From Leptolyngbyaceae cyanobacterium (GTDB lineage Bacteria; Cyanobacteriota; Cyanobacteriia; Phormidesmidales; Phormidesmidaceae), in NCBI GenBank assembly GCA_965263355.1, contig CBDHHL010000032.1:896001-960000 (forward strand): a stretch of 64,000 nucleotides of DNA. The letters are read 5' to 3'. A model generated the notes under the pieces. It did no database searches, was not told where the DNA came from, and saw only the letters and a list, made by a program, of their open reading frames with translations. Below, piece by piece: positions 7,165-41,152 of this stretch. The number at the start of each line of letters is the position of its first letter. Position 1 is the stretch's first letter. Both the position numbers and the translations under genes were made by a program.

Positions 7165-7290
7165 TGAGTATTGCTGTTCAGCACTTTTCATCTGCTGTAG
7201 CGGATTGAGCAAACTATTTCTCACTATTATTGTTGTGCACTATATGCACAAAGCTATCTTTCTTATACGTCTTAGTTATTAATAAATGAA

Positions 7291-8604
7291 GTGGAAAAAA
7301 TTATTTCTAAAATCAGGGGGATTTTAAGCGGCTCCCTAGCTAAAGACAGCATGTGGATGTTGTCTTCCCAAGTACTGGGAATTTTTATTCAAGGTGCCTA
7401 CTTTGTTATTGTAGCTAGGGTTCTAGGCGCTGAAGCATACGGTATATTTATTGGTATTGCTTCCTTTGTCAAATTAGTTTTTCCGTTTGTTGGCCTGGGT
7501 AATGCTGACATTTTCCTTAAGCACGTTTCAAGAGATCAAAGCTTATTCAGAGGTTACTGGGGCACTACGTTACTGACTTGTTTGCTCTTCAACCTGGGCT
7601 TGATACCTCTGATGCTAGGGCTAGCAAAGTTGATTTTTAGCCCTGAAACATCGCTGCTACTGGTCTTTTTTGTATTGGTAGCAGATTTATTGGGGGGCAA
7701 GTTATGGGACCTAGCCGCTGGTGCGTTTGTTGTCTGTGATCAGTTTAAGCTGGTTGCCCAGAGTAAAATTATTTATGGTCTAGGTAAACTCATTGCAGCT
7801 TTTGGCTTATTGGTCTTCTTTGAGCATGGCAATGTTGTTGCTTGGGGTGGATTATATTGCTTAGGGTCAATTCTACCCGCCCTTTCATCGATACTGACAG
7901 TTAATAAGCTCTTTGGCAAGCCTATATTCAACCTCAGCAAGTATCCACCTGAATTTGCTGAAGGATTTTTCTTTGCCATTGCTCAGTCGGCAGAGACGGT
8001 AAATGGTCAAATTGACAGAACTATGCTGGTCAGTCTGGCTTCAGCAGAAGCCGCTGGTATTTATGCGGCAGGTTACCGGTTTATCGATGTTGGATACATC
8101 ATTATTATTGCCGTAATGAGTGCCACCTACACTCGATTCCTGCGCCATGGTGCTGGTGGCATTAAGGCTGGACTCCAATTTGCAGTAAAGTTAGTCCCTA
8201 TTTCTGTTGGCTATGGAGTAATTTCTGCTATTGCCCTGGTGAGCCTTTCTCCCTTTACAGCCACCCTCTTAGGTGAAGAGTTTGCTCGCTCAGGTGGTGT
8301 GCTGTTGTGGCTAGCGCCTATTCACCTGATTGCCACATTACAGTTCATTGCAGCTGATACTCTGACTGGTGCAGGTTTCCATAGAGTGAGAAGTGCCTTG
8401 CAAGTCACGGCTGCATTTATTAATTTTGGGGCAAACTTATACTTGATTCCTCGTTTTTCTTGGCAAGGGGCCGCTTGGGCCACCCTAACGTCCGAAACGT
8501 TTAAGCTTGTAACCCTTTGGTTGGCTGTCTTCTTTTATAACAGACGAGCAAATATTCAGGGCCAACTGGCCAATGCTGGAACTGCTGGCCCTGATACTGA
8601 TTAA
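7291..8604 (+). CDS. wzx: Wzx-type polysaccharide flippase (MOP superfamily)
   Basis: About 12 TMs; ARVLGAEAYG, IDRTML, AGIYAAGYRF, LIPRFSWQGAAWAT. Confidence 0.88.
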   Translation: MEKIISKIRGILSGSLAKDSMWMLSSQVLGIFIQGAYFVIVARVLGAEAYGIFIGIASFVKLVFPFVGLGNADIFLKHVSRDQSLFRGYWGTTLLTCLLFNLGLIPLMLGLAKLIFSPETSLLLVFFVLVADLLGGKLWDLAAGAFVVCDQFKLVAQSKIIYGLGKLIAAFGLLVFFEHGNVVAWGGLYCLGSILPALSSILTVNKLFGKPIFNLSKYPPEFAEGFFFAIAQSAETVNGQIDRTMLVSLASAEAAGIYAAGYRFIDVGYIIIIAVMSATYTRFLRHGAGGIKAGLQFAVKLVPISVGYGVISAIALVSLSPFTATLLGEEFARSGGVLLWLAPIHLIATLQFIAADTLTGAGFHRVRSALQVTAAFINFGANLYLIPRFSWQGAAWATLTSETFKLVTLWLAVFFYNRRANIQGQLANAGTAGPDTD

Positions 8605-8606
8605 TC

Positions 8607-9695
8607 TTAGCCATGATGCCATTGCATTAACAAGGATTCCATAGTTTCCATAATTTCAATGGTTTCTGATAAAGGCATCAAATCACTTTCTAATTTACCT
8701 GTTTGAAGACACCTAACAACTTCTGTCGCCTCATAGTTATAGCCGTTGCCAGTGAGTGCTCGATGAATATTTTTGGATTTCTCTTTCCGTAACTTGACGA
8801 GAGTCTTAATCAACTGATTTTGTTTCAGCTGATTGATGGCAGATCGTTTCCAACCAGTATAAATGTTTGGCTTCTGAGATGTTACTACTATAGGTTCTTC
8901 AGAAAAACGGGTAATCGTAATATTCTCTGGTTTATAAAATGGTTCTTTAATAGTTATTTTGCCTCGAGTTCCAACAATCAAAGCTTCATTAGAGCTATAG
9001 CTACGTAAGGTAGAATGTAAAACAGCCATAGCTCCATTCTTATAGCGTAGAATTATGGCTGATTGGTCGTCTACTCCTGTTGTACCGATACAAGGATTTC
9101 CACTAATTTGACTAGGCTTGCCAAGTAGAAGAAAGGCAAGGGATAGTGGGTAAACGCCCCGATCAAGAAGGGCCCCCCCTCCTAGTTCAGGGTTAAAAAA
9201 ACGATTTTTTGGATCAAATTCCGTTGGATAACCAAATCCGGCTGTTAACAATTGGACTTCACCAATTTCACCTGATTGAATTAACTGACGTACTTCCTGG
9301 ATTAGTGGCATAAAGCGCATCCACATAGCTTCCATACAGAATACTCGCTGCTGTTTGGCTACGGTCATCACCTCCCGAGCTTCTTGCGAGGTAACTGTAA
9401 ATGGCTTCTCACAAAGTACTGCTTTTCCTGCATTAAGACATAAAATACTGTCAGCTTTATGGCGTGTTTGAGGAGTTGCAATATAAACAACATCGATGTC
9501 TGGGTCCTGTACTAGCTCGTCATAGCTGCCATAGGCTTTATGGGCACTAAATATGTTTGCTAATTCCTGTGCCTTACCAAGTGTCCTAGAGCCAATGGCC
9601 CATAATTGAGCATCAGTAACAGATTGAAGACCTTCGATAAATTGCATGGCTACTGTACCAGTACCCAATATTCCCCAACGAATCACATTACTCAT
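8607..9695 (-). CDS. Gfo/Idh/MocA family oxidoreductase
   Basis: WGILGTG, DVVYIATP, VLCEKP, MEAMWMRF, GGGALLDRGVY. Confidence 0.92.
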   Translation of the reverse strand: MSNVIRWGILGTGTVAMQFIEGLQSVTDAQLWAIGSRTLGKAQELANIFSAHKAYGSYDELVQDPDIDVVYIATPQTRHKADSILCLNAGKAVLCEKPFTVTSQEAREVMTVAKQQRVFCMEAMWMRFMPLIQEVRQLIQSGEIGEVQLLTAGFGYPTEFDPKNRFFNPELGGGALLDRGVYPLSLAFLLLGKPSQISGNPCIGTTGVDDQSAIILRYKNGAMAVLHSTLRSYSSNEALIVGTRGKITIKEPFYKPENITITRFSEEPIVVTSQKPNIYTGWKRSAINQLKQNQLIKTLVKLRKEKSKNIHRALTGNGYNYEATEVVRCLQTGKLESDLMPLSETIEIMETMESLLMQWHHG

Positions 9696-10364
9696 AACTT
9701 ATATAAATATAGTGTTTGTTTAGATTGAGTTTGTAGTCGAGTAAATCTATATCAGCATCATTACTCTTTGAATAAGTTAGCTCACAAGACCCAGTAAATG
9801 ACTATTGCATCAATAGTATTTATCAATAAAAAGTACAATTCTAATACTTTTATTTGTAATGACCTTTGATTTGTCAGGTTCTGTGTGAATTAACCACAGT
9901 GCTTAAGAGAAGTTTATCTTATTTTTTTGGGAATCTTAGTTTAAGGAGCGATTTATTTCTTTCAGCTCTGTTAAGGCTCATAACCTTATAGAACGATAAG
10001 TCTAGTGTATCGTCAAAGCTAAAATTTCAGGTTGGTTACTGATAAAGAGTGAAGGGTAAATAGCAACTCTTCATTCCTTTAAACTCCTTTACTCTTTACG
10101 AGTCTTACCCAAATTTTTAGTCTTGACAGACCACTAGACATAATTTCTGTACAGAGAAACTTTATATGAGTGAGTTCGTCTACAGATGTGTTGCTGGGGC
10201 AAATTACTGAATCCATATTTGTATGGCTTAAATGAGTTCTCGCGACTGTCCGATAGTTTTAATTGTTCTCCTAATGTTTTCCAGATAAAACATTAGTTCT
10301 GATTTTTGTGCGTGTTATCTAAAAGCTTCAATGGTGCAGCTCTGTTAGGTTGAAGGATTAATCT

Positions 10365-11345
10365 ATGAATAATTTACTAGAACGTGATATCTACGATATT
10401 AATGAAGATAACGCTGCAGAACTGTTTGCCCAGCAAGCTAATGCACCTGCACCTGAGCTAGGAAATTTCTCTGGCAGAGGGTTTGTGCTCTGCGCAGGAG
10501 GCCCCTATTTGGAGAGTGCGTATGTTGTGGTTCGTCTCCTGCGTCATTACGGTGCAACGTTGCCGATTGAAGTTTGGCACGCCGGGGAAGATGAGATTCC
10601 TGCTTGGGCAAGACCTGCATTTGTAGAACATGGTGTCACCCTTCACGACATCATGGATTACTGCCAAAATCGGCCCCTCAAACAGATGCGCGGTTTTCCA
10701 ATCAAAACAGCGGCAATCCTCAACACCCGCTTGCGCGAGGTGATGTTTATTGATGCCGACTGTTTCCCCGTTCGCAATCTGGAATTTCTATTTGAGACGC
10801 AAGAATTTAAAGACAATAAGGCAATCTTTTTCCCCGATTACCAGCGTCACTTACTTTTGCCAGATAAACCCGTCTGGGACCACGTAGATATGCCCTACAA
10901 AGGAGATACAGAATTCGAAACGGGTCTACTGTTGTTTGATAAGATTGCCTGCTGGAAAGCTCTCAATCTTGCAGAGTGGATGAATCTTGGGTCAGAGTTT
11001 TGGTATCAGCATGCTATGGGAGACAAAGATACGTTCTATTTAGCCTGGAGAAAAGTCAATCAATCTTATTTCTTAGCACCGGATTGCGTCCGCATTCCCA
11101 CGGTTCTTAGCCGACATTATTGGACAGGGAAAAAGCATTTGGCTGACCACCGCACAGGAACTTCAAAGTATACAGTGCCTTACAAAAAAGGCATCTTTAA
11201 AAGTTACCTAGCTCCCTACAAGGGACGTCCTCTCTATAAGGATTTTATTGACGAGTTTTTACAACGATTTGTCAATAGCAACTATAGTTTACACACCCAG
11301 TTCCTAGACAATCTGAAAATTTATAAAGACGCTTCTGAAGCTTAG
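10365..11345 (+). CDS. GT71 / Mnn-type alpha-mannosyltransferase-like glycosyltransferase
   Basis: GFVLCAGG, LPIEVW, GFPIKTAAIL, FIDAD (DXD), AIFFPD, ETGLLLFDK, GDKDTF.LAW. Confidence 0.78.
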   Translation: MNNLLERDIYDINEDNAAELFAQQANAPAPELGNFSGRGFVLCAGGPYLESAYVVVRLLRHYGATLPIEVWHAGEDEIPAWARPAFVEHGVTLHDIMDYCQNRPLKQMRGFPIKTAAILNTRLREVMFIDADCFPVRNLEFLFETQEFKDNKAIFFPDYQRHLLLPDKPVWDHVDMPYKGDTEFETGLLLFDKIACWKALNLAEWMNLGSEFWYQHAMGDKDTFYLAWRKVNQSYFLAPDCVRIPTVLSRHYWTGKKHLADHRTGTSKYTVPYKKGIFKSYLAPYKGRPLYKDFIDEFLQRFVNSNYSLHTQFLDNLKIYKDASEA

Positions 11346-11653
11346 TACTCAGTCTTGAGTGAACCCTCTTCACGTCTAAAACGGTCATTTTTTCGAGACC
11401 CAAAGGTTTCAACTTGGACGTGGTTTAGCTCAGGAACCTCTGTGGAGAATACTTGAGCGATAAAGCCATTTCAGCTGCAGGAACAATTTACCTGATTTTG
11501 ATTCATGACTGTAGGTGGGGCATCCTAGAGACGCACTTTACTGTGTCTATTTTTAGTTAGCCATTAATTGCAATATACTTTTCAGCTTGGATCATACTGA
11601 AGCTGGCTTAGGTCAGCCACCATTCAATCTCCAACTATTACTTAAATTTAAAG

Positions 11654-12640
11654 ATGCAGGCAATTTCCAACCAACCAACCAATGGAAAGAATAATCTCAG
11701 CACATCCACAAAACTGATGAAGATTTCAGTGTGTGCTGCAACTTACAAGCGACCTGAATTATTACATAAGTTACTAGAATCTCTGAATGACCTGACGTTT
11801 ACCCGCCTTCCCACACCTACTATCGAAGTCATCATTGTTGATAATGACTCTACAGGGTCAGCCGAGGAGACTGTTAAATCAATGCAATCTTCTTTTAAGT
11901 GGCCCTTAAGGTATGTCGTAGAAACTAATCAGGGTGTTACCTATGCTCGCAATCGCTGCATCAGTGAAGCCTCTAAAGAGTCAGATTTCATCGCGATGCT
12001 TGATGATGATGAAACGGCGACTCCCAAGTGGCTGGAGGAACTCTTATTGAGTCAGGAAAAATTCGATGCTGAAATTGTTTCAGGACCTGTTCTAGCTGTT
12101 TACAGTGAAGGACAAGAAGTCCCTGGTTGGATTAAGGCTGGTGACTTTTACTCATTTCCTCGATATAAGACTGGTCGGGAAATGGAGGTTGCTTTTACAG
12201 GCAACGTTATGTTTAGCACTAAACTTTTGAACAATCTCAAAGAAGGTGAGACCTTTTTTAACCATCGCTTTGCCCACAAAGGCGCAGAAGATGTTTATTG
12301 CTTTTCAAGCTTGCATAAAGCGGGTCATAAGATTGTTTGGGCTGATGATGCCGTTCTGTATGAGCCCATTGCCGATCAACGCCTGTCGCTGAAATGGATT
12401 TTGAACCGAGGATTTTGGGCGTGGAGTGTCCATAGCCTGATTGAGAAAGAACTTTATCCATCAATCAGAATTCAAGCTAGTCGAGCCCTTAAGGGTCTAG
12501 GGTTAATTGTGATAGGAACCCTATCTGTTGGACCATCATTACTTTTGGGCAGACATAAAGCTGCTAAGGCCCTAGTAAAAGTATATAAAGGCATGGGTAC
12601 AATTTCTGGACTATTGGGACGCCAGGGTAATTGGCAATAA
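11654..12640 (+). CDS. Glycosyltransferase family 2 (ExoM-like)
   Basis: ISVCAATYKRP, IIVDND, GVTYARN, FIAMLDDDE, GAED. Confidence 0.9.
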   Translation: MQAISNQPTNGKNNLSTSTKLMKISVCAATYKRPELLHKLLESLNDLTFTRLPTPTIEVIIVDNDSTGSAEETVKSMQSSFKWPLRYVVETNQGVTYARNRCISEASKESDFIAMLDDDETATPKWLEELLLSQEKFDAEIVSGPVLAVYSEGQEVPGWIKAGDFYSFPRYKTGREMEVAFTGNVMFSTKLLNNLKEGETFFNHRFAHKGAEDVYCFSSLHKAGHKIVWADDAVLYEPIADQRLSLKWILNRGFWAWSVHSLIEKELYPSIRIQASRALKGLGLIVIGTLSVGPSLLLGRHKAAKALVKVYKGMGTISGLLGRQGNWQ

Positions 12641-12737
12641 CAGATGGCCAACATTTTCTCAGGCAATGTCTGCACGCTTGTGATTATGTTATTTTTTTTT
12701 AGAATGCCCTTAGTATTACAACGTATATAAATCTCCT

Positions 12738-14621
12738 ATGGCAAACTCTATATTTACTAAGCCCAGTAAACTGTGCTCAAAAATTTTCAGAAAGTTGCCA
12801 GGGATAGCGGGTGCTGTTCTTTTAGCAGCTAGCACCTTGAGTTGCTCAGTGGGGGGAGAGGAAACTAAAGAGATTGAAATTCCAGATTTTAAGATTCTGG
12901 TAGATCAGTTTGGCTATCGTCCTCAAGACCCTAAAGTAGCTGTTGTTGTCTCTGAAGTAGATAGCAATCAACCCTATGAGTTGAGAAATGTAGAAACCGA
13001 TGCGGTTATAGAGGTCATCGAACCAATACAGTGGGCTGATGGAGCTATTCATTCACAATCAGGTGTGAAAGCACTATGGATTGATTTTTCAGAAGTGGAA
13101 GAGCCTGGCAACTATGTTATTGTTCGTCAGGATGGTGAAACTCGTTCAGCTGAATTCGAGATTAACAAAGACGTCTACAAAGATGTTTTAGTTGCTGCCA
13201 CTAAAATGTTTTTCTATCAGCGCAGTGGATATCCAAAAACAAAACCCTTTGCAGATGAGCGTTGGACTGACGGAGCAAGTTATATCGGCACTGGACAAGA
13301 TACCCAGGCTCGATATGTCAAAGAAAAGGAGAATCCCCTTTCTGAAAGAGTAATGCATGGTGGTTGGTTCGACGCAGGGGACACCAACAAATATGTGACC
13401 TATGCGCTTCAACCGATGCACCAATTGCTTAGTGCCTACGGCCAAAATCCAGAAATCTGGACGGATGATTTCAATATTCCAGAATCGGGTAACGGGATTC
13501 CCGATTTGTTGGACGAGATCAAGTTTGAATTGGATTGGCTAATTCGAATGCAGGATAGTGATGGGGGTGCATTTATCAAGCTAGGGACGTTGGATTATGA
13601 TCCGCCTAACACGATTCCCAGTAAGGATACTCGACCTCGATATTATGGCCCTAAGTGCTCATCCTCGACAATTACTCTCGCTAGTGTTTTTGCCCATGCT
13701 GCCGTAGAAATGCGGAATATTCCTGGACTAGAAGACTATGCGACTGAGTTGACATCACGGGCGAGGCAAGCGTGGGACTGGTTTCAGAGCAATCCAGTAG
13801 ATACAGACTGTGATGATGGCGAAATCAAGTCCGGTGATGCCGATATGATTGAAGATGCCCAGATGGGGACAACCGTCAGTGCAGCCGTTTATCTTTTTGC
13901 AGCAACAGGCGATCCTCAATATTCGCAATATGTTGCTGACAATCTTAGTCTTGCTCAGCCCTATAGAGATGGTCCTTGGTCTCGCTATGATCCCTGGCAA
14001 GGAGATGCCCTGATCTTTTATTCTCAATTACCTGATGGTGACAGCACAGTAAAAGAGAAGATTCTAACGGACTTGGAGAGCACGTTGCTGAACCAGCATC
14101 CAGACGCCTATGGCAATGATGATTCGCTTGATCCATTTCGGTCTTATATGCCCGATGAACAATATCACTGGGGCAGCAACATGATCAAGTCAAACTACGG
14201 AAGTATGAACTACGATCCTGTGATGCTGGGCATTCATGAAGCTGAACACCAGGCTTATGTAGAAAGAGCTTTGGGAGCCGTTAACTATATCCATGGGGTT
14301 AATCCATTGGGTCTGGTATATCTCACCAACATGTATGAGTATGGTGCAGAGTCTTCAGCCAACGAGATGTACCATCAGTGGCTGGGCGTAGATGACTATC
14401 AGAATGCCTTAACATCTAAGCGGGGGCCTGCGCCTGGCTTTTTAACGGGTGGTCCCAATCAGTTTTATGCCGGAGATGCTGCCCTTAAGGGAGGTCCTCC
14501 TATGAAAGTCTACGTTGACAAAGCAGCTCAAGAGGTTGCAGCCTGGGAAATTACAGAGCCTGCTATCTACTACCAGTCTGCGTATATTAAATTGTTATCT
14601 AAGTTTGTCACCGCAGAATAG
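12738..14621 (+). CDS. Glycoside hydrolase family 9 with N-terminal Ig-like domain, probable lipoprotein
   Basis: Lipobox-like LLAASTLSC, VDQFGYRP, FFYQRSG, GGWFDAGD (catalytic Asp motif), YIHGVNP, EPAIYYQ (catalytic Glu). Confidence 0.88.
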   Translation: MANSIFTKPSKLCSKIFRKLPGIAGAVLLAASTLSCSVGGEETKEIEIPDFKILVDQFGYRPQDPKVAVVVSEVDSNQPYELRNVETDAVIEVIEPIQWADGAIHSQSGVKALWIDFSEVEEPGNYVIVRQDGETRSAEFEINKDVYKDVLVAATKMFFYQRSGYPKTKPFADERWTDGASYIGTGQDTQARYVKEKENPLSERVMHGGWFDAGDTNKYVTYALQPMHQLLSAYGQNPEIWTDDFNIPESGNGIPDLLDEIKFELDWLIRMQDSDGGAFIKLGTLDYDPPNTIPSKDTRPRYYGPKCSSSTITLASVFAHAAVEMRNIPGLEDYATELTSRARQAWDWFQSNPVDTDCDDGEIKSGDADMIEDAQMGTTVSAAVYLFAATGDPQYSQYVADNLSLAQPYRDGPWSRYDPWQGDALIFYSQLPDGDSTVKEKILTDLESTLLNQHPDAYGNDDSLDPFRSYMPDEQYHWGSNMIKSNYGSMNYDPVMLGIHEAEHQAYVERALGAVNYIHGVNPLGLVYLTNMYEYGAESSANEMYHQWLGVDDYQNALTSKRGPAPGFLTGGPNQFYAGDAALKGGPPMKVYVDKAAQEVAAWEITEPAIYYQSAYIKLLSKFVTAE

Positions 14622-14732
14622 ACATAGGCCATACTTTGCAGTATGGTCGCCAAAATTTTCTATTCAGGGAACTCTATCACTCAAACCGTTCAATAGTAAC
14701 GTCCTATTTTTTAATCCTTATTAGTTTTACCT

Positions 14733-15863
14733 ATGAACATTGCCATTGTCGGGTGCGGCTTTGTTGCTGACTACTACCTTAAGACTCTTCCACTGCATCC
14801 AGAACTTAAGCTAATTGGAGTGATGGATAAAAATCTGGCACGGGCTCAGAAGTTAGCTGACGTATACTCCATCAAGAAAGTTTATGAGACTTTTGACGAA
14901 CTGTTAAAAGACAGTTCTATTGATATTGTTCTGAATCTAACTAATCCTCGCAACCACTATGAGGTGTCTAAAGCCTGTTTGGAATGTTATAAGCATGTTT
15001 ATTCTGAAAAGCCTTTAGCCACCACTATTCCTGAGGCGAAAGAGCTGGTGGAACTTGCCAAAAGTAGAGGTCTGCACATTTCGTCTGCGCCGTGTAATGT
15101 TCTAAGTGAATCGGCCCAAACCCTTTGGAAAGCCCTTAGGGACAATGTTGCCGGTAAAGTCCGGCTAGTCTATGCCGAAATGGATGATGGCCTAGTGCAC
15201 AAAATGCCCTACACGCTTTGGCTGAGTGAATCTGGCATTCCGTGGCCTTACAAAGATGAATTTGAAGTAGGCTGCACCCTTGAACATGCCGGGTATTATG
15301 TAACCTGGTTAACCACCTTTTTTGGTCCTGCAACTACAGTGACTGCATTCTCATCTTGTCTCGTCCCTGATAAAGAGACCGATGTCTCTCTAGACCCTAA
15401 TGATACTCCTGATTTTTCAGTAGCTTGTATCAAGTTTGAATCAGGCGTAGTTGCCCGCCTAACCTGTGGCATTATTGCTCCCCACGATCATGAATTTAAG
15501 GTGATTGGAGATAAAGGAGTTCTCAGCACCCATGACTGTTGGTTTTATGAGAGCCCTGTAAAATTCCAAAAAATGATGAAAATCCGACGTAAGGTCTTCA
15601 TGAGTCCCTTTAAACAGACGATTCCTATGGTCAAAAAGCCACCTAAATTTAAGTCCAAGGGAGCTAATCATATGGACTTTGCCAGGGGTGTGGCTGAACT
15701 GGCTGCAGCTATAAGAGTTCAGCGACCTGGACGTCTATCCGCTGATTTTTCTCTACACAATAACGAGTTAGTTTTAGCTATCCAAAACAGTCTAGATAGT
15801 GAAGGTGTCTATAAAATGACGACAACATTTGATGAGGTTCAACCAATGCCCTGGGCTACATAA
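14733..15863 (+). CDS. Gfo/Idh/MocA family oxidoreductase
   Basis: IAIVGCG, VLNLTNP..H, HVYSEKP. Confidence 0.9.
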   Translation: MNIAIVGCGFVADYYLKTLPLHPELKLIGVMDKNLARAQKLADVYSIKKVYETFDELLKDSSIDIVLNLTNPRNHYEVSKACLECYKHVYSEKPLATTIPEAKELVELAKSRGLHISSAPCNVLSESAQTLWKALRDNVAGKVRLVYAEMDDGLVHKMPYTLWLSESGIPWPYKDEFEVGCTLEHAGYYVTWLTTFFGPATTVTAFSSCLVPDKETDVSLDPNDTPDFSVACIKFESGVVARLTCGIIAPHDHEFKVIGDKGVLSTHDCWFYESPVKFQKMMKIRRKVFMSPFKQTIPMVKKPPKFKSKGANHMDFARGVAELAAAIRVQRPGRLSADFSLHNNELVLAIQNSLDSEGVYKMTTTFDEVQPMPWAT

Positions 15864-16121
15864 TAGTTGCAATAAGCAAGCACATGTTGCCAGTCAACCA
15901 AGTGAAACGACTTTCAGATTATTCTAATTTCAACTAGATTTGAATAGAGTGAAGTCTCTAGCTAAGCATTTATGTTTGTTGCCGTAGCAAGATATATCTA
16001 CTGAAAGGTAATGTAGGTCTTATATAAACCTTGTCCACATCCAGGATTGGGGTTCTTCCGGTGAAGAATCTACATGTTTCAACTTGGAAGTGGTTTGAAT
16101 ATGTTCTAGGATAACTAACTC

Positions 16122-17444
16122 ATGACTGAAAAAAAGTTGAAAGTACTATTAATTATTGAACAATGTAATCCGGCCTGGAACTCGGTTCCGCTCGAAGGAT
16201 ATCATTTGTATGCAGGCATTAGTCGCTTTGTTGATACAACCTTGGTGACCCATGAACGTAACCAGGAAGAACTTGAAAAGGTACATCCTGATGCAGATAT
16301 TGTCTATTTAGAAGATAGCAATTTTATTAAGAGGCTTGAACAATTAGGTGAACGATTGAGTACATACAAAGGCCAAATAATTTGGCCTTTGTTTAATGCG
16401 CTTACCTATCCAGTTTATTGGGGATTCAATCGTGAAGTCTATCGTCAGTTTAAGGATGCGATTGCCCGTGGTGACTATGATTTAGTCCATACAATTACTC
16501 CTATGATGCCGCGCTATCCTGCAAAAGCGGTTAAAGCATGCAAAAAAACACCCTTTATTCTTGGACCAGTGAATGGTGGTGTTCCTTTTCCAGATGGATT
16601 CAAAGAGCTAGGCCGCAGAGAATTCTCTTATCTTAACTTCCTTCGTGCAGTCGGTCGTTCTATTATTCCTGGATACCGTGAGACCTATAAAAAAGCGGAC
16701 TATATTTTAGCGGGGTCAAGTTACACCCTTGGGCTTATCAAAGAACTGTTTCCTAAAACGAGCGATGACAAGATAGAATTATTTTATGAGAATGGTATTA
16801 CCAGTTCCTTTGTTAGAACTGATAAGGATTTTGCTCAACACAAAAAAGCGACTGAAGCCTCAGTAGACAATAAGGTTAAGCTACTTTATGTGGGGCGTTT
16901 AGTTCCCTATAAAGGCGCTGATATGATTCTAGATGCTATCGATCGGCTCGATGCATCTGTCAAAGCAAAAATCAATTTGACAATTGTGGGTAAAGGTTCT
17001 GAGCAAGAGCGCTTAGAAAATCAAGTAAAACGGCTAAATCTTAAGGAGTGCGTTTACTTCACTGGTTATGTTGAACAGTGGCAAACATTGGAGTATTACC
17101 AAACTTCTGACATCTTCTGCTTTCCTTCTGTACGTGAATTTGGTGGCGCAGTGGTACTAGAAGCTATGGCCAATGCGTTACCTTGTATTGTGGTTGACAA
17201 TGGTGGTATTGGTGAATATGTAACAGAGAAAACAGGATTTAAGATTAGTCCCGTGTCTAGAGAGTTTGTCGTTAAGAAAATGGCTATTTACATTGCCCAA
17301 TTGGTTAATGACCACATAATGCGACACGATATGGCCTATGAGGCTCTTCAACGTGCACGAGAATTTACATGGGATATGAAAACTCGTACAGTTGTTAATG
17401 ATATTTACCCGAAGGTCTTAGCAAAACAAAAAAAGGCTGTTTAA
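16122..17444 (+). CDS. Glycosyltransferase family 4
   Basis: LLYVGRLVPYKG, FCFPSVREFGGAVVLEAMA (EX7E motif). Confidence 0.92.
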   Translation: MTEKKLKVLLIIEQCNPAWNSVPLEGYHLYAGISRFVDTTLVTHERNQEELEKVHPDADIVYLEDSNFIKRLEQLGERLSTYKGQIIWPLFNALTYPVYWGFNREVYRQFKDAIARGDYDLVHTITPMMPRYPAKAVKACKKTPFILGPVNGGVPFPDGFKELGRREFSYLNFLRAVGRSIIPGYRETYKKADYILAGSSYTLGLIKELFPKTSDDKIELFYENGITSSFVRTDKDFAQHKKATEASVDNKVKLLYVGRLVPYKGADMILDAIDRLDASVKAKINLTIVGKGSEQERLENQVKRLNLKECVYFTGYVEQWQTLEYYQTSDIFCFPSVREFGGAVVLEAMANALPCIVVDNGGIGEYVTEKTGFKISPVSREFVVKKMAIYIAQLVNDHIMRHDMAYEALQRAREFTWDMKTRTVVNDIYPKVLAKQKKAV

Positions 17445-17512
17445 TATAGCTTTCGCGCATCGTTTAAAGCAGAGGTAATCTTTGAAGGATTTAGATAGCA
17501 ATAGTTATAGTT

Positions 17513-17607
17513 ATATAGCAATCCGGCCTAGTCTTTGAATATTTTGAGACTTTGATGCCTTTTAGAAGCTAGAGATGGCTCTCACAAATCAAATTGGATT
17601 GCTATAT
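17513..17607. mobile_element. MITE-like element with 12-bp terminal inverted repeats
   Basis: ATATAGCAATCC (17513-17524) and GGATTGCTATAT (17596-17607); non-coding. Confidence 0.5.
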
Positions 17608-17699
17608 GCGACACAATCTGACAAATGTATTCAGCAGATTGCTATAAAATTGCCAATTGTAATGTTGAACATCTCTTTTTTTGACTGTTGAAGGGGAAA

Positions 17700-17737
17700 A
17701 GCCAAGAAGCCATTCCTTAAGGAATGGCTTCTTGGCT
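17700..17737. terminator. Perfect 38-bp palindrome between convergent genes
   Basis: AGCCAAGAAGCCATTCCTT|AAGGAATGGCTTCTTGGCT, with an A-run on the left (U-tail on the minus strand). Confidence 0.6.
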
Positions 17738-17755
17738 GATAAAATTTGCAAATGT

Positions 17756-17805
17756 TGCTGCTCCTCATTATTTTACTTGTAAGATTCTGAGGAGCAGCAT
17801 TTTTT
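17756..17805 (+). terminator. Intrinsic terminator-like hairpin
   Basis: TGCTGCTCCTCA...TGAGGAGCAGCA followed by T6. Confidence 0.6.
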
Positions 17806-17860
17806 ACAGATGATTCATCTTTTAAATCAAAAACGGTAAATCTTCCTTCTTGATGTAAAC

Positions 17861-18589
17861 CTAGGCTTCGAGTGCCATCAACTCAGAGACTGTCTTAAAT
17901 TGATATCCTTCTTTCTGCAACTGTTGTAAAGCTAATTTAGTCGCTTTAACAGTCTGAGAACGATCAGAATCTCCATCATTCATACCATCATGCATGAGAA
18001 CAATTGAACCAGGCTTCACATTGCGAATGATAGAATCAGCGATTGCTTCTGGTCCAGGATTTTCAAAATCTTTGGGATCAACATCCCAAAGAACATTAAT
18101 TTTCCGTCTGCGGGCAAGCTCCCAAGGTAATCTGATGCGTTTAAGACCATAGGGAGCCCGAAAGAGTATCTCTGATTTAGCACCCAAATCAGTTAATAAG
18201 TCATCTGTTTTCTGAATTTCTGAGCGGATAGTATTGAGGCTAATGTCGACCAACCGCTTGTGGGAATAGGAGTGGTTGCCTAACTCATGCCCCTCTGTAA
18301 TCATGCGACGAGTTGTTTCTAAATTATTTTCGATATTTTCACCAATTGCAAAAAAAGTTGCTTTTGCATCAAACTCGTTGAGCACATCTAACAAGCTATC
18401 TGTGTAGGGATAATTAGGACCATCGTCATAGGTCAGTGCTAGTGCTTTTTCCCGGGTGTTTACACAAGTAACCATTTGCCCAAACAATTGATACTTGTAT
18501 GATTTTGCCAACCAGTCCCAAGCATAGCGAAGCAAGAAAACCAATAGCGCTGTACCAGAAAAACAGATAAAAGCTAGAAAGAAATTCAT
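17861..18589 (-). CDS. Membrane-anchored polysaccharide deacetylase (CE4/NodB)
   Basis: N-terminal TM; ALTYDDGP, ATFF, GNHSYSH, FRAPYG, IVLMHD. Confidence 0.93.
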   Translation of the reverse strand: MNFFLAFICFSGTALLVFLLRYAWDWLAKSYKYQLFGQMVTCVNTREKALALTYDDGPNYPYTDSLLDVLNEFDAKATFFAIGENIENNLETTRRMITEGHELGNHSYSHKRLVDISLNTIRSEIQKTDDLLTDLGAKSEILFRAPYGLKRIRLPWELARRRKINVLWDVDPKDFENPGPEAIADSIIRNVKPGSIVLMHDGMNDGDSDRSQTVKATKLALQQLQKEGYQFKTVSELMALEA

Positions 18590-19372
18590 CTTATTGAAAA
18601 ACTAGTTGTTTTTTAGATTAATTAAGTAGGTCGGTTCAATCTTCTGTAAAATACAAGCAAACTGCTTAACTCTTTGGAATCTGCCGCATCCCCTTAATTA
18701 TCAAGGCTTTAAATCTAGTCTCCAGAATTGGAAAACAGAAGGAGGCCTGAATATCTGATAGTTAACTTGGACTACCTACTTATATACACCTTCAAGACGA
18801 ACAAAACATACGAAGGATTGCAGCAAAAACGTGTAAAAGGCTCAAACTCATTGTATCAAGCAGAAGCAAACATATCTCTACGGCAGTTTTATTTCAAGTG
18901 TATACTCACTAATTCGATGAGTAAGACACTTACATGAGAAGAGTAATAGTCACATTAGACTCAAAGGCGTCTTGAATAAGAAATCTGTTAAGCAATGGGG
19001 GTATCTTTAACAAATAGAAGTCATTCACTCGAAAAACTATAAATATATAATACCGTGTAATTCGTAAGGTAGCTTATTTAATAGATTGAGAGCTATGTGC
19101 CTTAGTAGCTGAAACTCTAGTCGTTAACAGCTTTGGAACTTAGAAATAAGTTAGCGTTCTCACGGTGGGAATCATACAGATGTGAACATAATGATTGACT
19201 TTACAGGAAAATGAGGCTGTTTTTTGTTGATTGGAAATGTTAGCCCTAGATTTGTAATATTTTCTTAATGTAGATGTTTATCACATTAAGAAGCTCCTGA
19301 TATAGGGGACTTTTATTTTTCTGTTAAGTCATATATGAGTAGAAACTAGGAATTGGGGATTACTAAGTAACT

Positions 19373-20779
19373 ATGCCGAAAACTCAAGCGAAACGGCTTG
19401 TACGTAATATTAGCGCCCAAGCATTGCAGAAACAGGTGGGCGTACGTCAAGATTTATCTCCCCAGCTTTGGAATCTATCCTATGAGAATCATTTACTTAC
19501 ATTACATGGTATCAATCTCCGAGATATTTTAGAACAGTATGGAAGTCCATTACATGTTTTAAATACACAGAGATTAGAACAAAATGCAAATGCCATGATG
19601 TATGGGCGTCAACAGACTAAGCTGCTGAATGTTTACTATTCCTACAAGACTCATCCTATTCCTCGGGTCTTACAGCTTTTGCATGGTTATGGTATTGGAG
19701 CAGAGGTAATTTCTCCCTACGAATTATGGTTAGCTCTACGTCTTGGAGTAGATCCTCAGAAAATTATTTATAATGGTCCGGCTAAGTCAGACGAATCCAT
19801 TGAAACAGCTATTAAGCAAGGTATCCGCTTACTTAATATCAACCACCGTGAAGAGCTAGAACGTTTTGCCAAAATATCCCGGCAGGTTGGTAAAACGGCC
19901 AATATTGCTATTCGATTAATATTTGCTAAGGGTTGGAGTGGCCAATTTGGTCTAGGAGTTGATACTGGGGAAGCTTTAGAGGTCTATCGCCAAGCTCTGA
20001 GTATGCCTGAACTAAATGTTATTGGTGTGCACTGTCATCGAGGGATACTCTTTAAGGGACTCGATGATATGGCAGGATATCTTCAAGGAATTAAAGATTT
20101 TTTAGATACCCTGCATAGGGAACTTAATTTTCACCCTGAAATTTTAGATGTGGGTGGTAGCATTGCCATATCTACGGTGCGGCCATTTTCAGACTTTGAC
20201 AAAAAGCTAGGTGAAACGTTTCGCATTGAGGTACGAGAGCCAGATCCTCAGAGTTATCCTTTGCTAGAAGACTTTGCAGAATTTATTGCTAAAGATCTCA
20301 CAGGCTATTTCCAAAGCGTTAATCGTCCTTTACCAGAGCTAGCTGTTGAGCCAGGAAGAGCTATTACTGGCAATACGCAGATGTTACTATCTCGCATTGT
20401 CGATACCAAAGAAACAGCTGAAACGTTTACCTATGGAATTTTAGATGCGGGTATTAGTGTTGCTGAAATTGTAAAACTTGAATTTCATCAAGTCTTTCCC
20501 CTACAACGCAAGATTCATCAACTAGAAGAACTTTATCGCCTAGTGGGGCCTATTTGTCATATGGGAGACACGCTGTATCCTGCTTGGCGGTTGCCTAAGT
20601 TAAGCAAGGGCGATGCTATTGCAATTATGGATTCAGGTGCTTACTTCGTACCTGAGGCTCGAGCTTTTTCTTTTCCCAAACCTGGTATTGTTGGATTAAA
20701 CAGCAACGGCGAGTCTTTCGTTATCCGTAAGTCTGACACATTTGAAAGTATTATCCATATGGATTGCTTGGCTGAATAG
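19373..20779 (+). CDS. Fold-type III PLP-dependent decarboxylase (LysA/ornithine decarboxylase family, divergent)
   Basis: YYSYKT (PLP Lys), IIYNGPAKS, QFG, HCHRG, LDVGG, EPGR, GPICHMGD, GAY. Confidence 0.88.
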   Translation: MPKTQAKRLVRNISAQALQKQVGVRQDLSPQLWNLSYENHLLTLHGINLRDILEQYGSPLHVLNTQRLEQNANAMMYGRQQTKLLNVYYSYKTHPIPRVLQLLHGYGIGAEVISPYELWLALRLGVDPQKIIYNGPAKSDESIETAIKQGIRLLNINHREELERFAKISRQVGKTANIAIRLIFAKGWSGQFGLGVDTGEALEVYRQALSMPELNVIGVHCHRGILFKGLDDMAGYLQGIKDFLDTLHRELNFHPEILDVGGSIAISTVRPFSDFDKKLGETFRIEVREPDPQSYPLLEDFAEFIAKDLTGYFQSVNRPLPELAVEPGRAITGNTQMLLSRIVDTKETAETFTYGILDAGISVAEIVKLEFHQVFPLQRKIHQLEELYRLVGPICHMGDTLYPAWRLPKLSKGDAIAIMDSGAYFVPEARAFSFPKPGIVGLNSNGESFVIRKSDTFESIIHMDCLAE

Positions 20780-20833
20780 GCTGCGTGTTGCGAAAACTAT
20801 TTTAGAATCTCTTAGCGATATCAATTTTTTCCT

Positions 20834-22120
20834 ATGGTTGCCATTAGTTCACTTAACCAAGCTCCGATTATGATGACTATGGGAGATTATGGGGGGACTC
20901 TAGCAGTTGTCAGGTCCTATGGCAAACATAATCAGCCCACTGTATTAGCGGACCCTAACACATCTACCCTAACCCATAAATCTCGCTATCTTTCAAAGGC
21001 ACTTAAATCTCCACCAGTAGAAGACTTTGAGCGTTTCTTTGATTGGTTGATGGAGTATGGAAAACAGAATCCTGGGGCGTTTCTCTATCCATCTAGTGAC
21101 GATATGACTTGGTTGATCGCTTACTATCGCGATCAGCTAAGCAAATATTACAAGCTTTACAGTCCCGATGTTAAAACTATCTATACACTCCTAAATAAAC
21201 CGGAGCTAAATGCAATCGCAAAAAAGCTGAGTATTCCCATACCAGCTACTATTGCTCCCACCTCTGTGGAAGAACTCAAAGCTCAAGCTCATGATTTAAC
21301 CTATCCGGTACTTATCAAACCCAGAACTCAAATTGGCATGCTCCGCCGTCAAAAGGGATTGGTTTTTGAAACTCCTGAAAAACTGTTAGAGACTTACCCA
21401 AACTACCAGCAAAAATTTTATTATCATCCGCTATTAGCCAACTTTGACCCAGACGTAGTATGGCCTATGGTGCAGGAATTTCATGTATCTGCTGGTCAGA
21501 ATACTTATAGTGTGGCTGGTTTTGTTGATGAAAGTCAAGAAATCTTTTTAACTCGCGCCTCGGCCAAGGTTTTACAATTTCCCATTCGAGTCGGTGTAGG
21601 GCTGTGTTTTGAAAGTCGTCCCATAAACCCTAAAGCCTTGCAATACCTTAAAGCTATTTGCAAAGAAGTTAGTTACTACGGTGTCTTTGAAGCTGAATTT
21701 ATAGTCGATGGCGATCAAATGCTGTTGATGGACTTTAATCCAAGATTTTACGGTCAAATGGCCTTTGAATTAGCCCGTAAGTTACCGTTAGATCAACTGG
21801 TATTAGCTTACGCTAACAACGACTTTGAGTATGGTAAAGCAGTTCAACAGCAGGACCAGATGTGGGACCATAACACAGTTTATCGTTTTAGTAATCGATG
21901 GCGACTGTGGTTGATTTTGACGACTCAGGCCTTTGCTGGACGCTTTTCTTGGGCCGAACGACGTAAGTGGTTAACCTGGGCGAGTCAGGCTGGTGATGGA
22001 TGCGATCCAGTCTACACCGACGATGATCCAAATCCTCGTCGTGCTGACATACAGTCGGTCGTTAAAAGCTGGGTAAAACATCCACGAAGTACGTTTAAGA
22101 CATTTTTTGCAGATCTTTGA
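20834..22120 (+). CDS. ATP-grasp carboxylate-amine ligase (D-aspartate-ligase-like)
   Basis: LAVVRSYG, SRYL, LYPSSD, YPVLIKP, MVQEF, FEAEF, LMDFNPRF. Confidence 0.82.
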   Translation: MVAISSLNQAPIMMTMGDYGGTLAVVRSYGKHNQPTVLADPNTSTLTHKSRYLSKALKSPPVEDFERFFDWLMEYGKQNPGAFLYPSSDDMTWLIAYYRDQLSKYYKLYSPDVKTIYTLLNKPELNAIAKKLSIPIPATIAPTSVEELKAQAHDLTYPVLIKPRTQIGMLRRQKGLVFETPEKLLETYPNYQQKFYYHPLLANFDPDVVWPMVQEFHVSAGQNTYSVAGFVDESQEIFLTRASAKVLQFPIRVGVGLCFESRPINPKALQYLKAICKEVSYYGVFEAEFIVDGDQMLLMDFNPRFYGQMAFELARKLPLDQLVLAYANNDFEYGKAVQQQDQMWDHNTVYRFSNRWRLWLILTTQAFAGRFSWAERRKWLTWASQAGDGCDPVYTDDDPNPRRADIQSVVKSWVKHPRSTFKTFFADL

Positions 22121-22391
22121 AAAATCATCTAAATGTTTGGCATAGGGACAGGCTACTTCCTCGATAGATGCCAGTTTCCCTTTCCTACACCAAATATTGC
22201 GCTAATAGGTCTTGACAAGCATACACTGGGGTTTGCGTCCCAGCGTATTGCGCAATATAGTCCAAAAACGTATCTTCGGAGTTAAGAGCATCGACTACGT
22301 TGCACTTTTTGCAGGCCGAGTGTGAAACTTAACAAATACGCTGCAACGTAATAGAGACGTAATAGAATGAAAGCAAAATAGCAGAGATCAT

Positions 22392-22427
22392 AATAAATCC
22401 TCTGATGTTTCAATCAGAGGATTTATT
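22392..22427. terminator. Terminator-like inverted repeat (possibly bidirectional)
   Basis: AATAAATCCTCTGAT-gtttca-ATCAGAGGATTTATT. Confidence 0.55.
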
Positions 22428-23132
22428 GATTTAATGCCTGAATGCAGATAGACAATTGGCCACATGAACGGGCCTACTGTACGTGGCAGTTATGCAGGGA
22501 CTGATGTTACGGATACGTTTGGTAGTGTGATTGTAGATGCTGGATTGAGGGCTGCGATCGCATGTAAAGACATTGCGCCTCTATCCACTGAACAAACCTA
22601 TGTCCTCTGAGTATGCGCGTTACCAGGGCCGATAATGTTTCCCTTACATTTACCTAACCCACTGACCCAATTGTGGCTGAAACCTTACAGGGAAAGGGCT
22701 TTAGGAAAAATCGAAAAAACATCATCCAAACCACAACTTCATTCGTATTAATAGTCAAACAGATAAATCGTTGTTGATGCGAGGTTGAACTGGATATTTC
22801 TGTTGCACTGTAACTAGTGTGATAGTGGAGGCCATTGTTTGTAGTAATTTGTTTAATAAACAAATGAACCATAACCTGTTCAAAAAAACTACAAATAATC
22901 TCATCCAATATCAACGCTTACTCGTATCTATGACTGAATGCAATTGTGTTCTTTTCAAACCTCAAGTTTGATTTAGCCATAGAACAGTAATTGCAATCTG
23001 TTCGTTAGTCCTTTTCTCGTTAAGAATATCCGCAACAGCTATCTTGGCAGTTCTGTCAGGAGCGTTTAAGCGTACTGACTCTTTATCGAGACTGCTCGTT
23101 TTTAGCTATCTACCACTATAGGAGAATCCAAA

Positions 23133-25568
23133 ATGAACGTTTTTCTAGCTTTTTTTGTTAACCAGATTGTTAGCGCATTATTTCAAGATGCCCCTGAGAT
23201 TGAAGATTTAGGAGATATCTTGATTGGTGGCAATGGTGACGACAATCTTCAAGGCGGAGATCAGGATGATATCTTTTTCGGTGGCAACGGAAATGACACT
23301 ATTCTTGGCGGTGCTGGAACTGACATAGTGTTTGCTGGCAGAGGTGATGATATTGTTGTTGGCCAGACAGGTAACGACGTTGCTTTTTTGGGCTCAGGTG
23401 ATGATCGTTTTATCTGGAACAATGGCGATGGGAGTGACTTCATCAACGGTGGATTAGGCTATGATACCACCCAGGTGAATGGAGCAGATGGTCCTGGTGA
23501 TGAGTTTGATTTGAGTCAGGTGGATGGCCAAGCTATTTTCAACCGTCTCAATCTTGGTCTCTTTACACTCACCAATGAAGGTATTGAACAGTTTGAGATC
23601 AATGGTCAGGGGGGGGATGATTCTTTGACAGTGGGTGACCTGACCGGCAGTGAGGTGCAAAAAGTTGTCTTCTCGGGTGGTTATGGTAATGACATATTAG
23701 ATGCCCGTGAAAGCTCCACTACGATTGAGGCGTTTGGTGGTGACGGTAATGACTTGCTGCAGGGTGGTTCAGCAGAGGATACTTTCTTTGCTGGCGCAGG
23801 CGATGATATTGTTGTTGGCCAGCGCGGCAATGACACGGCAGACCTGGGTGAAGGCGACGACCGGTTTATCTGGAATAACGGAGATGGTAGCGACTTCATC
23901 AATGGCGGTACTGGGTTTGACGTCACTCAAGTCAACGGTGCGGATGGTCCTGGCGATGAGTTTGATTTGAGTCAGGTGGATGGCCAAGCTATTTTCAACC
24001 GTCTTAATCTTGGTCTCTTTACCCTAACTAATGAAGGTATTGAACAGTTTGAGATCAATGGTCAGGGGGGGGATGATTCTCTGACAGTGGGCGACCTGAC
24101 CGGCAGTGAGGTGCAAAAAGTTGTCTTCTCGGGTGGTAACGGTAATGACATATTAGATGCCCGTGAAAGTTCCACCACGATTGAAGCGTTTGGTGGTGAC
24201 GGCAATGACTTGCTGCAGGGTGGTTCAGCAGAGGATACTTTCTTTGCTGGCGCAGGCGATGATATTGTTGTTGGCCAGCGCGGCAATGACACGGCAGACC
24301 TGGGTGAAGGCGACGACCGGTTTATCTGGAATAACGGAGATGGTAGCGACTTCATCAATGGCGGTACTGGGTTTGACGTCACTCAAGTCAACGGTGCGGA
24401 TGGTCCTGGCGATGAGTTTGATTTGAGTCAGGTGGATGGCCAAGCTATTTTCAACCGTCTTAATCTTGGTCTCTTTACCCTAACTAATGAAGGTATTGAA
24501 CAGTTTGAGATCAATGGTCAGGGGGGGGATGATTCTCTGACAGTGGGCGACCTGACCGGCAGTGAGGTGCAAAAAGTTGTCTTCTCGGGTGGTAACGGTA
24601 ATGACATATTAGATGCCCGTGAAAGTTCCACCACGATTGAAGCGTTTGGTGGTGACGGCAATGACTTGCTGCAGGGTGGTTCAGCAGAGGATACTTTCTT
24701 TGCTGGCGCAGGCGATGATATTGTTGTTGGCCAGCGCGGCAATGACACGGCAGACCTGGGTGAAGGCGACGACCGGTTTATCTGGAATAACGGAGATGGT
24801 AGCGACTTCATCAATGGCGGTACTGGGTTTGACGTCACTCAAGTCAACGGTGCGGATGGTCCTGGCGATGAGTTTGATTTGAGTCAGGTGGATGGCCAAG
24901 CTATTTTCAACCGTCTTAATCTTGGTCTCTTTACCCTAACTAATGAAGGTATTGAACAGTTTGAGATCAATGGTCAGGGGGGGGATGATTCTCTGACAGT
25001 GGGCGACCTGACCGGCAGTGAGGTGCAAAAAGTTGTCTTCTCGGGTGGTAACGGTAATGACATATTAGATGCCCGTGAAAGTTCCACCACGATTGAAGCG
25101 TTTGGTGGTGACGGCAATGACATCCTTATCGGTGGTGCAGGTGACGACATTCTCATTGGTGGTGACGGTTTCGACTTGCTGATTGGTGGCGCAGGTAGTG
25201 ATATTCTCATCGGTGGCAATGGTGCCGACCTATTTGGCTTCGATACTGGTACTACCTTTAATGCGGCTGATATTGGCACCAATCAAATCCAAAACTTTGA
25301 GGCTATCGATAGCATTGTGCTAGATGTCACTGTCTTCTCACAGTTGACCAGTGCAGTGGGTGGTACACTGTCCGCTAGCGAGTTTGCAGTTGTGAATAGT
25401 GTAGAGGAAGCGGCTCTGAGTGACGCATTAATTGTCTACGGTGCGAATACCGGGAACCTATATTACAACCCGAACGGCGTTGAAGAGGGCTTTGGCAATG
25501 GTGCTCAAATGGCAACAATTGAAGGTGCTCCCACATTAGATGCTAATAGCTTTGTCATTCAGGCATAG
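23133..25568 (+). CDS. RTX (hemolysin-type Ca-binding) repeat protein, probable secreted surface protein
   Basis: Many GGxGxDxLx nonapeptides; 152-aa repeated module; C-terminal GNLYYN..G.GFG.G region typical of cyanobacterial RTX proteins. Confidence 0.9.
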   Translation: MNVFLAFFVNQIVSALFQDAPEIEDLGDILIGGNGDDNLQGGDQDDIFFGGNGNDTILGGAGTDIVFAGRGDDIVVGQTGNDVAFLGSGDDRFIWNNGDGSDFINGGLGYDTTQVNGADGPGDEFDLSQVDGQAIFNRLNLGLFTLTNEGIEQFEINGQGGDDSLTVGDLTGSEVQKVVFSGGYGNDILDARESSTTIEAFGGDGNDLLQGGSAEDTFFAGAGDDIVVGQRGNDTADLGEGDDRFIWNNGDGSDFINGGTGFDVTQVNGADGPGDEFDLSQVDGQAIFNRLNLGLFTLTNEGIEQFEINGQGGDDSLTVGDLTGSEVQKVVFSGGNGNDILDARESSTTIEAFGGDGNDLLQGGSAEDTFFAGAGDDIVVGQRGNDTADLGEGDDRFIWNNGDGSDFINGGTGFDVTQVNGADGPGDEFDLSQVDGQAIFNRLNLGLFTLTNEGIEQFEINGQGGDDSLTVGDLTGSEVQKVVFSGGNGNDILDARESSTTIEAFGGDGNDLLQGGSAEDTFFAGAGDDIVVGQRGNDTADLGEGDDRFIWNNGDGSDFINGGTGFDVTQVNGADGPGDEFDLSQVDGQAIFNRLNLGLFTLTNEGIEQFEINGQGGDDSLTVGDLTGSEVQKVVFSGGNGNDILDARESSTTIEAFGGDGNDILIGGAGDDILIGGDGFDLLIGGAGSDILIGGNGADLFGFDTGTTFNAADIGTNQIQNFEAIDSIVLDVTVFSQLTSAVGGTLSASEFAVVNSVEEAALSDALIVYGANTGNLYYNPNGVEEGFGNGAQMATIEGAPTLDANSFVIQA
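23343..25121 (+). repeat. 456-bp tandem repeat, about 3.9 copies
   Basis: Unit starts at 23343, 23799, 24255 and 24711; copies 2-4 look identical by eye, copy 1 is diverged at its 5' part. Confidence 0.95.
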
Positions 25569-41145: not shown

Positions 41146-41152
41146 GGTACAC

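Follow-up and report, generated by a model that had tools for sequence, protein, structure and literature searches.

Layout of the locus

We analysed a 64,000-nucleotide stretch of the genome of a Leptolyngbyaceae cyanobacterium (contig CBDHHL010000032.1, positions 896,001 to 960,000; referred to as the window, with coordinates counted from its first nucleotide), in which two neighboring genes follow an exopolysaccharide (EPS) cluster. The first (positions 19373 to 20779, plus strand) encodes a 468-amino-acid pyridoxal phosphate (PLP) decarboxylase of the alanine-racemase fold (fold III) that groups outside the LysA subfamily, and the second (20834 to 22120, plus strand) encodes an ATP-grasp carboxylate-amine ligase of 428 amino acids. 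They are separated by 54 nucleotides and are the core of the module described here. A CE4/NodB polysaccharide deacetylase gene (17861 to 18589, minus strand) is divergent from the decarboxylase gene, with 783 nucleotides between the two starts. The cluster itself, of the Wzx/Wzy type, extends from position 1228 to 17444, encodes GT4, OPX, PCP, a Wzy_C protein, Wzx, two Gfo proteins, GT, GT2, GH9, and a further GT4, and is the presumed client pathway of the pair. The original prediction, made from the sequence alone, had described the three open reading frames (ORFs), the 54-nucleotide gap, the divergent deacetylase, and the motifs GPICHMGD and QFG in the decarboxylase, all of which we found in place.

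The closest named homologues came from marine Leptolyngbya and Adonisia (78 to 90% identity). The base composition of the pair resembled that of the adjoining GT4 and CE4 genes and thus gave no sign of recent arrival. Promoter and terminator scans returned results close to chance (21 sites versus 15.1 ± 4.1).

The decarboxylase

The structural model of the decarboxylase (pLDDT of 91) had the alanine-racemase fold, with diaminopimelate decarboxylase (DAPDC) and DokD as the top Foldseek matches (E value of 2e-35), and the Pfam families PF02784 and PF00278 both scored above their cut-offs. In an alignment of 197 sequences (120 database homologues and 77 from the loci described below, two overlapping sets), the PLP-binding and catalytic residues were almost completely conserved: K92 in 196 of 197, and H222, E326, C395, and Y424 in all, the set also including R329. 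They comprise the Schiff-base Lys, the stacking His, the Glu and Arg of EPGR, the catalytic Cys, and the Tyr of GAY. Judged by these residues and by its barrel and beta-domain architecture, the protein belongs to the alanine-racemase-fold (group IV) PLP decarboxylases. The possibility that the fold III enzyme is a racemase, which had also been raised, was rejected, since it has the decarboxylase-type Cys395 and the DAPDC fold.

The specificity positions differ from those of DAPDC. GPICHMGD (residues 392 to 399) and QFG (residues 191 to 193) align with GPICETGD and SKFG of the Aquifex enzyme. Not one of the 197 homologues has Asp or Glu after Cys395; position 396 is T in 78, H in 66 (as in the window protein), S in 48, M in 3, and Q in 2. 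Likewise, Ala364, aligned with the substrate-binding specificity-helix Arg of Aquifex DAPDC, is invariant (197/197). Phe432 is also invariant and, by counting in a printed alignment, falls at position 430 of DokD. The Y430F mutant of DokD reportedly has altered stereospecificity, and Phe at position 432 presumably favors L-substrates. The pocket residues co-vary in two subtypes, T/S-P-F in 121 of the 197 sequences and another in which His396 mostly occurs with an acid at position 428.

No NCBIfam cut-off was reached by the decarboxylase. The best match was TIGR01048 (lysA), which requires 297.9 bits and gave 202.7. Lower scores were obtained for NF052544 (DokD, a D-Orn/D-Lys decarboxylase; 147.7 against 700), the FslC model (134.2 against 500), and the exosortase-A-associated family TIGR03099 (96.9 against 478). 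Homologues carry the source name "diaminopimelate decarboxylase." The original prediction had asked whether a canonical lysA exists elsewhere in the genome; in all five related genomes examined a separate lysA scored above the cut-off. By its sequence the decarboxylase is not LysA, as predicted: both diaminopimelate-binding residues are lost, and the lysA family score falls short.

We also observed a more distant sister group of decarboxylases, with a more distant ATP-grasp partner, in loci L064, L067, L070 to L072, and L121 to L129; several of these read GPTCMPWD.

The ligase

The ligase has an ATP-grasp fold (Z score of 27.1 and root mean square deviation of 3.2 over 296 residues aligned to 2pn1, VIA), and its ATP- and Mg-binding residues are conserved, K122 and K162 in 194 of 195 homologues and E288, N302, and R304 in all 195. 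Q214 and K245 are invariant or nearly so. By its fold, two Lys, Glu, and N-x-R motif, it is a member of the ATP-grasp superfamily. On catalytic residues, therefore, both members of the pair read as intact enzymes. The name "D-aspartate-ligase-like ATP-grasp" given in the original prediction stood in its second half; the first half has as its sole basis the automatic JGI name "D-aspartate ligase" on many homologues. No NCBIfam family scored above its cut-off for the window ligase, a phmmer search of the PDB gave no match, and a profile search returned weak matches to biotin carboxylase and carbamoyl phosphate synthetase only. No TupA family was found for it, either in Pfam at an E value of 0.001 or below or among the Atlas matches listed. 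Ligase matches on plasmids were distant (21 to 28% identity among the best 30 of 70 matches), with no adjoining decarboxylase on the two plasmids inspected.

The two genes form a unit

Of 337 candidate stretches confirmed in the genome scan, the best 79 underlie the counts of loci given here. A ligase homologue was present in 74 of the 79 decarboxylase loci, within 500 nucleotides of the decarboxylase in 64 of the 74, and the genes were arranged in tandem either way (29 and 13 loci), convergently (30), or divergently (2). For the five loci without a ligase, one genome has the gene elsewhere and four gave no match, in assemblies that are possibly incomplete. The 79 loci cover 10 phylum-level groups, which are intermixed in a quick decarboxylase tree; its 61 rows comprised the window, four LysA outgroups, and 56 of the loci, with L074 and 22 of the Myxococcaceae loci omitted. 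Over 39 less-redundant pairs, decarboxylase and ligase tree distances were correlated (rho of 0.76, with 0 of 999 permutations as high), and 16 of 24 supported splits were common to both trees. Additionally, among 172 genomes of the cyanobacterial family the two genes were found in the identical 12. The decarboxylase and ligase are thus a coupled, conserved two-gene unit, and the linkage first suspected from the short spacing in the window is confirmed.

Several gene arrangements recur around the pair. In L063, L117, and L118 an unannotated gene for 354 amino acids lies between decarboxylase and ligase. A class I methyltransferase-like gene adjoins or lies near the pair in eight loci (L012, L045, L053, L055, L058, L059, L066, and L068), which we take to recall the aminopropyl logic of MccD/MccE. 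The Myxococcaceae share one block (26 loci, L017 to L047 and L073) with glnS, GT4, an alpha/beta hydrolase, arginyl-tRNA transferase, GT2, the decarboxylase, and the convergent ligase, continuing with two unannotated genes (273 and 349 amino acids) and often a metallo-beta-lactamase-fold gene.

Association with polysaccharide genes

The reading that we favor, with moderate confidence, is that the pair is an optional cassette adding an amide-linked, amine-ended group to a cell-surface or lipid-linked glycan, here the Wzx/Wzy EPS. The neighbor scan covered about 230 of 361 single-copy neighbors, and many contigs were short, so that counts of loci without a glycan gene are upper bounds. Core genes (Wzx, Wzy, PCP, OPX, or initiating transferase) occurred in 17 of the 79 loci, in two of them at 10 to 11 kb, just beyond the fetched flank; 36 had only glycosyltransferase or nucleotide-sugar genes (26 of these being one Myxococcaceae locus, and L069 being weak), and 26 had no glycan gene. 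Once the Myxococcaceae (26 loci) and the close cyanobacterial relatives (9 loci) were set aside, 44 less-redundant loci remained, 11 with core polysaccharide genes, 10 with glycosyltransferase or nucleotide-sugar genes only, and 23 with none. Wzx was present in 8 of the 44, compared with about 1% expected per 21 kb, a rate set by ten genomes that together gave 33 Wzx-family matches in 66 Mb (binomial P of 2e-8, ignoring relatedness), and over independent tree branches the enrichment was about 18-fold. Wzx directly adjoins the pair in five loci (L016, L049, L058, L068, and L074), and GT2 is directly upstream in the 26 Myxococcaceae loci. Within the cyanobacterial family, 11 of the 12 carriers matched the Wzx and GH9 of the window, while Wzx was matched in 17 of 160 non-carriers.

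The pair is an optional companion of this cyanobacterial EPS cluster. The clusters of relatives hold other variable tailoring genes (acyltransferase, GT87, DegT, and HAD), and thus the pair resembles one of several optional cassettes. Both enzymes also have basic, amphipathic terminal helices, N-terminal in the decarboxylase (median moment of 0.76, net charge of +5) and C-terminal in the ligase (0.76, +3), with higher values than any of the 8 and 10 further segments that were measured (0.40 to 0.64); as sequence features, these fit an association of both enzymes with the membrane.

Several observations weigh against a glycan target. The 23 of 44 less-redundant loci without a nearby glycan gene, although an upper bound, qualify the expected recurrence of the pair with wzx and glycosyltransferase genes, which the Wzx enrichment otherwise strongly supports. 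The co-occurrence within the family comes largely from one clade (9 of the 12 carrier genomes). Of 9 close relatives among the cyanobacteria, 3 have the pair apart from the EPS cluster, which they keep elsewhere, and no pair was found in at least four relatives with the cluster (G039, G042, G044, and G051). The cluster in the window has no aminotransferase or UDP-glucose dehydrogenase gene, so that neither type of acceptor is demonstrated, and the amphipathic helices may instead be protein interfaces.

Proposed mechanism and alternative explanations

In the mechanism that we propose, decarboxylase and ligase would be a mobile, optional two-gene tailoring cassette acting at the inner face of the membrane. 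The ligase would use ATP to join an L-amino acid through its side chain to a lipid-linked repeat unit, either by the omega-carboxyl of Asp or Glu onto a sugar amine or by a side-chain amine onto a uronic acid, in both cases keeping the alpha-amino acid free. The PLP enzyme would then remove the alpha-carboxyl, giving a beta-alanyl- or aminobutyryl-type amide or a diamine-type amide. PLP enzymes require a free alpha-amino group, and a route that starts with ligation must therefore use the side chain. According to one report (PMC7857480), the acid next to the catalytic Cys binds the side-chain amine and is replaced by Met in FigC, and FigC, SbnH, AcsE, MccE, and BtrK all act on substrates that are already ligated. 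By analogy, this family precedent favors ligation before decarboxylation over making the amine first. Thus, the suggestion that the pair amidates the EPS kept its coupled pair, while its order of steps, amine first, is not favored. We hold ligation followed by decarboxylation on a glycan target only tentatively. Still more tentative is an undescribed, carrier-free route common to several phyla, in which a membrane-associated ligase attaches the side chain of an L-amino acid on the lipid-linked Wzx/Wzy unit and the decarboxylase then trims it to leave a cationic group; here the substituent would differ between the two pocket subtypes, of which H-M-acid occurs in cyanobacteria and their allies and T/S-P-F in myxobacteria and other groups.

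A further clue to the order of steps is an arrangement that places an activating domain beside the decarboxylase. In L010 (6586 to 11416) a protein with adenylation, carrier, and thioesterase domains directly precedes the decarboxylase; its top NCBIfam match is aminoadipate reductase (508.8 bits, below the cut-off of 1030). Aminoadipate reductase activates a side-chain carboxyl. L109 (1 to 1751) repeats the adenylation/carrier arrangement at 50% identity, with an in-frame stop in the upstream frame. The L010 genome gave no ligase match. Profile A1, run over 401 genomes of the class of L010, matched the L010 genome only, and the adenylation-domain arrangement therefore rests on L010 and L109. 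In L063, L117, and L118 the pair is joined with AsnB and/or NadE genes, with a ligase and an acyl carrier protein (ACP) in L063. As a separate observation, a cassette of AsnB, AMP-ligase, ACP, and NadE genes holds or adjoins the pair in L063 (5975 to 14796), L117, L118, and L074.

The main alternative, less likely but plausible, is that the product is a small soluble amide or a modified lipid or glycolipid, the end of the EPS cluster being merely a frequent landing site. The less-redundant loci without glycan genes, where neighbors include ribosomal protein genes (L014), cbb3 oxidase (L013), and PhoX (L019), agree with it, as do the survival of the pair after detachment from the cluster and the nonribosomal peptide synthetase (NRPS)-like and AsnB/ACP/NadE neighbors in L010, L057, L061, L063, and L117. 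FigA/FigC and BtrJ/BtrK also make small molecules (PMC7857480 and PMC11350588). However, such a product would leave the Wzx enrichment over independent branches to be accounted for, and no transporter or NRPS-independent siderophore (NIS) synthetase recurred with the pair across lineages.

An amine-first route, a sub-case of the glycan reading, appears unlikely. Here the decarboxylase would turn a free amino acid that has no basic side chain, for example Ser, Thr, or their phosphates, into a small amine, and the ligase would use this amine to amidate a uronic acid. This order has a model in Campylobacter jejuni, where Cj1436 acts as a serine-phosphate decarboxylase and glucuronate is amidated by Cj1438C (PMC12409886 and PMC11800379). 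The loss of the distal-amine-binding acid suits any non-basic substrate, and a UDP-glucose dehydrogenase gene is present in 3 of the 79 loci (L062, L065, and L071). However, the fold III enzymes outside the polyamine and LysA groups that are listed in PMC7857480 all use ligated substrates, Cj1438C is TupA-like whereas the ligase is without a TupA family in the searches above, and no Cj1435-like phosphatase recurred among the neighbor clusters.

The deacetylase had been proposed as a third member of the module, freeing a sugar amine that the ligase would then acylate, which we regard as very unlikely. By its motifs the protein is a CE4/NodB deacetylase, with PF01522 at 110 bits, all five NodB motifs intact (TYDDG, HSxxH, RxPYG, DxxD, and LxHD), and a single N-terminal hydrophobic stretch that would serve as an anchor (Kyte-Doolittle 19-mer score of 2.23 from residue 2). 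It adjoins the pair divergently in the window, L001, and L009, and L072 has a distant CE4 gene and L065 a PIG-L deacetylase gene. However, close CE4 homologues occurred in just 2 of the 79 loci, and L002, L003, L005, and L007 have no such gene between cluster and pair. The deacetylase gene stays at the EPS cluster in G007, whose pair lies on a different contig, and also in G044, for which no pair was found; there it is directly followed by the genes that come after the pair in L001 and L009. The deacetylase gene is therefore an accessory gene of the EPS cluster that lies outside the decarboxylase-ligase unit.

Modification of a peptidoglycan side chain or cross-bridge, in the manner of the ATP-grasp enzyme AslA, whose operon includes a racemase (PMC4155827), is suggested by the JGI name of many ligase homologues. 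It is highly improbable, as the partner here is a decarboxylase, the position of DokD Tyr430 is always occupied by Phe432, the presence of the pair is patchy (12/172), and mur genes were not among its recurring neighbors. Those neighbors included no racemase gene. That the decarboxylase is a divergent housekeeping LysA, as its best family match and the names of its homologues would have it, is practically out of the question given its sub-cut-off score, the separate lysA genes, and the loss of both diaminopimelate-binding residues.

Significance

The pair is a real, conserved, and uncharacterised two-gene cassette, with a chemical logic already known from other systems. A literature search, which covered few subscription papers and no supplements, found no description of it. 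The work gives a testable function to a widespread pair that is mislabelled in databases as lysA, alanine racemase, or D-aspartate ligase, and the decarboxylase would define a new specificity class among the fold III decarboxylases. If a glycan is the target, the pair would explain amine groups and positive charge in cyanobacterial and myxobacterial surface polysaccharides, and adhesion, metal binding, and phage recognition would be affected. Carriers include one Myxococcus xanthus strain and Leptolyngbya PCC 7375, so that these predictions are testable in cultured organisms.

Other genes in the window

Within the EPS cluster, the GH9 gene (12738 to 14621) encodes a lipoprotein-like N terminus; it was matched in 30 of the 172 family genomes and tracks Wzx. 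The two Gfo/Idh/MocA oxidoreductases (8607 to 9695 and 14733 to 15863) have counterparts, 44% and 53% identical, that adjoin the pair in an actinobacterial polysaccharide locus (L062, 6144 to 8404). Downstream of the pair, positions 23133 to 25568 encode an acidic, Ca-binding repeat protein that is not kept beside the pair in other loci; its four internal repeats, each of about 152 amino acids, are nearly identical. Farther away are a 1,079-amino-acid protein with GH15 and phosphorylase-kinase C-terminal domains (47543 to 50782) and a filament-integrity-type operon (39584 to 41993) with a fraC-like gene followed by DUF5357 and ABC-2 membrane protein genes.

Comparison with known systems

Cj1436 of C. 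jejuni is a fold I enzyme, unlike the fold III decarboxylase here. The glucuronamide route of the C. jejuni HS:2 capsule (PMC12409886 and PMC11800379) comprises the decarboxylase Cj1436, Cj1437, the ATP-grasp amidoligase Cj1438C, and the phosphatase Cj1435. The original prediction knew of no such pathway for cyanobacterial EPS; the chemistry it proposed is on record for this capsule, which combines a serine-phosphate decarboxylase with an ATP-grasp amidoligase. Common to both are a decarboxylase and an ATP-grasp ligase at a polysaccharide locus and an amide-linked amine on a glycan, although here that outcome is only likely. In contrast, Cj1438C is a TupA-like domain fused to GT2, whereas the ligase described here stands alone, in a Wzx/Wzy-type setting and with no recurring phosphatase partner.

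The closest solved folds of the decarboxylase are DAPDC and DokD (TM of about 0.8, 21 to 25% identity), from which it keeps the PLP-binding residues but differs at the substrate-binding acid, the specificity-helix Arg, and the position of DokD Tyr430; compared with DokD, His396 breaks the Cys-Asp motif and Phe432 replaces the Tyr. Like TIGR03099, a fold III family that by its name is uncharacterised and tied to EPS/PEP-CTERM loci, it is found with polysaccharide genes, but it is of a different subfamily. Like the citryl-amino-acid decarboxylases FigC (of the FigA/FigC or FslA/FslC rhizoferrin route), SbnH, and AcsE, it is a fold III enzyme in which the catalytic Cys is followed by a residue that is not acidic (His396 here, Met355 in FigC), and those decarboxylases act on the ligase product (PMC7857480). 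From equal Cys-Tyr spacing we infer that Arg387 of FigC corresponds to Glu428 here. However, the partner here is an ATP-grasp ligase, with no NIS synthetase among the scanned neighbors.

BtrK is a structural relative of the decarboxylase. In the butirosin system BtrI/BtrJ/BtrK, and in CtaD/E/F and FlvN/L/O, the side-chain carboxyl of an acidic amino acid is the point of ligation, and a PLP enzyme then removes the alpha-carboxyl (PMC11350588); the L010/L109 arrangement mirrors BtrJ/BtrK, CtaD/F, and FlvN/O. Unlike the butirosin route, the locus here (17445 to 23132) has no stand-alone carrier protein ORF of at least 45 amino acids, and among the 79 loci a crude motif search gave stand-alone ACP-like ORFs in 2. 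Overall, while by the tests applied here it is a member of none of these systems, the pair likely resembles C. jejuni capsule amidation in its outcome and BtrJ/BtrK or FigA/FigC in the order of its steps.

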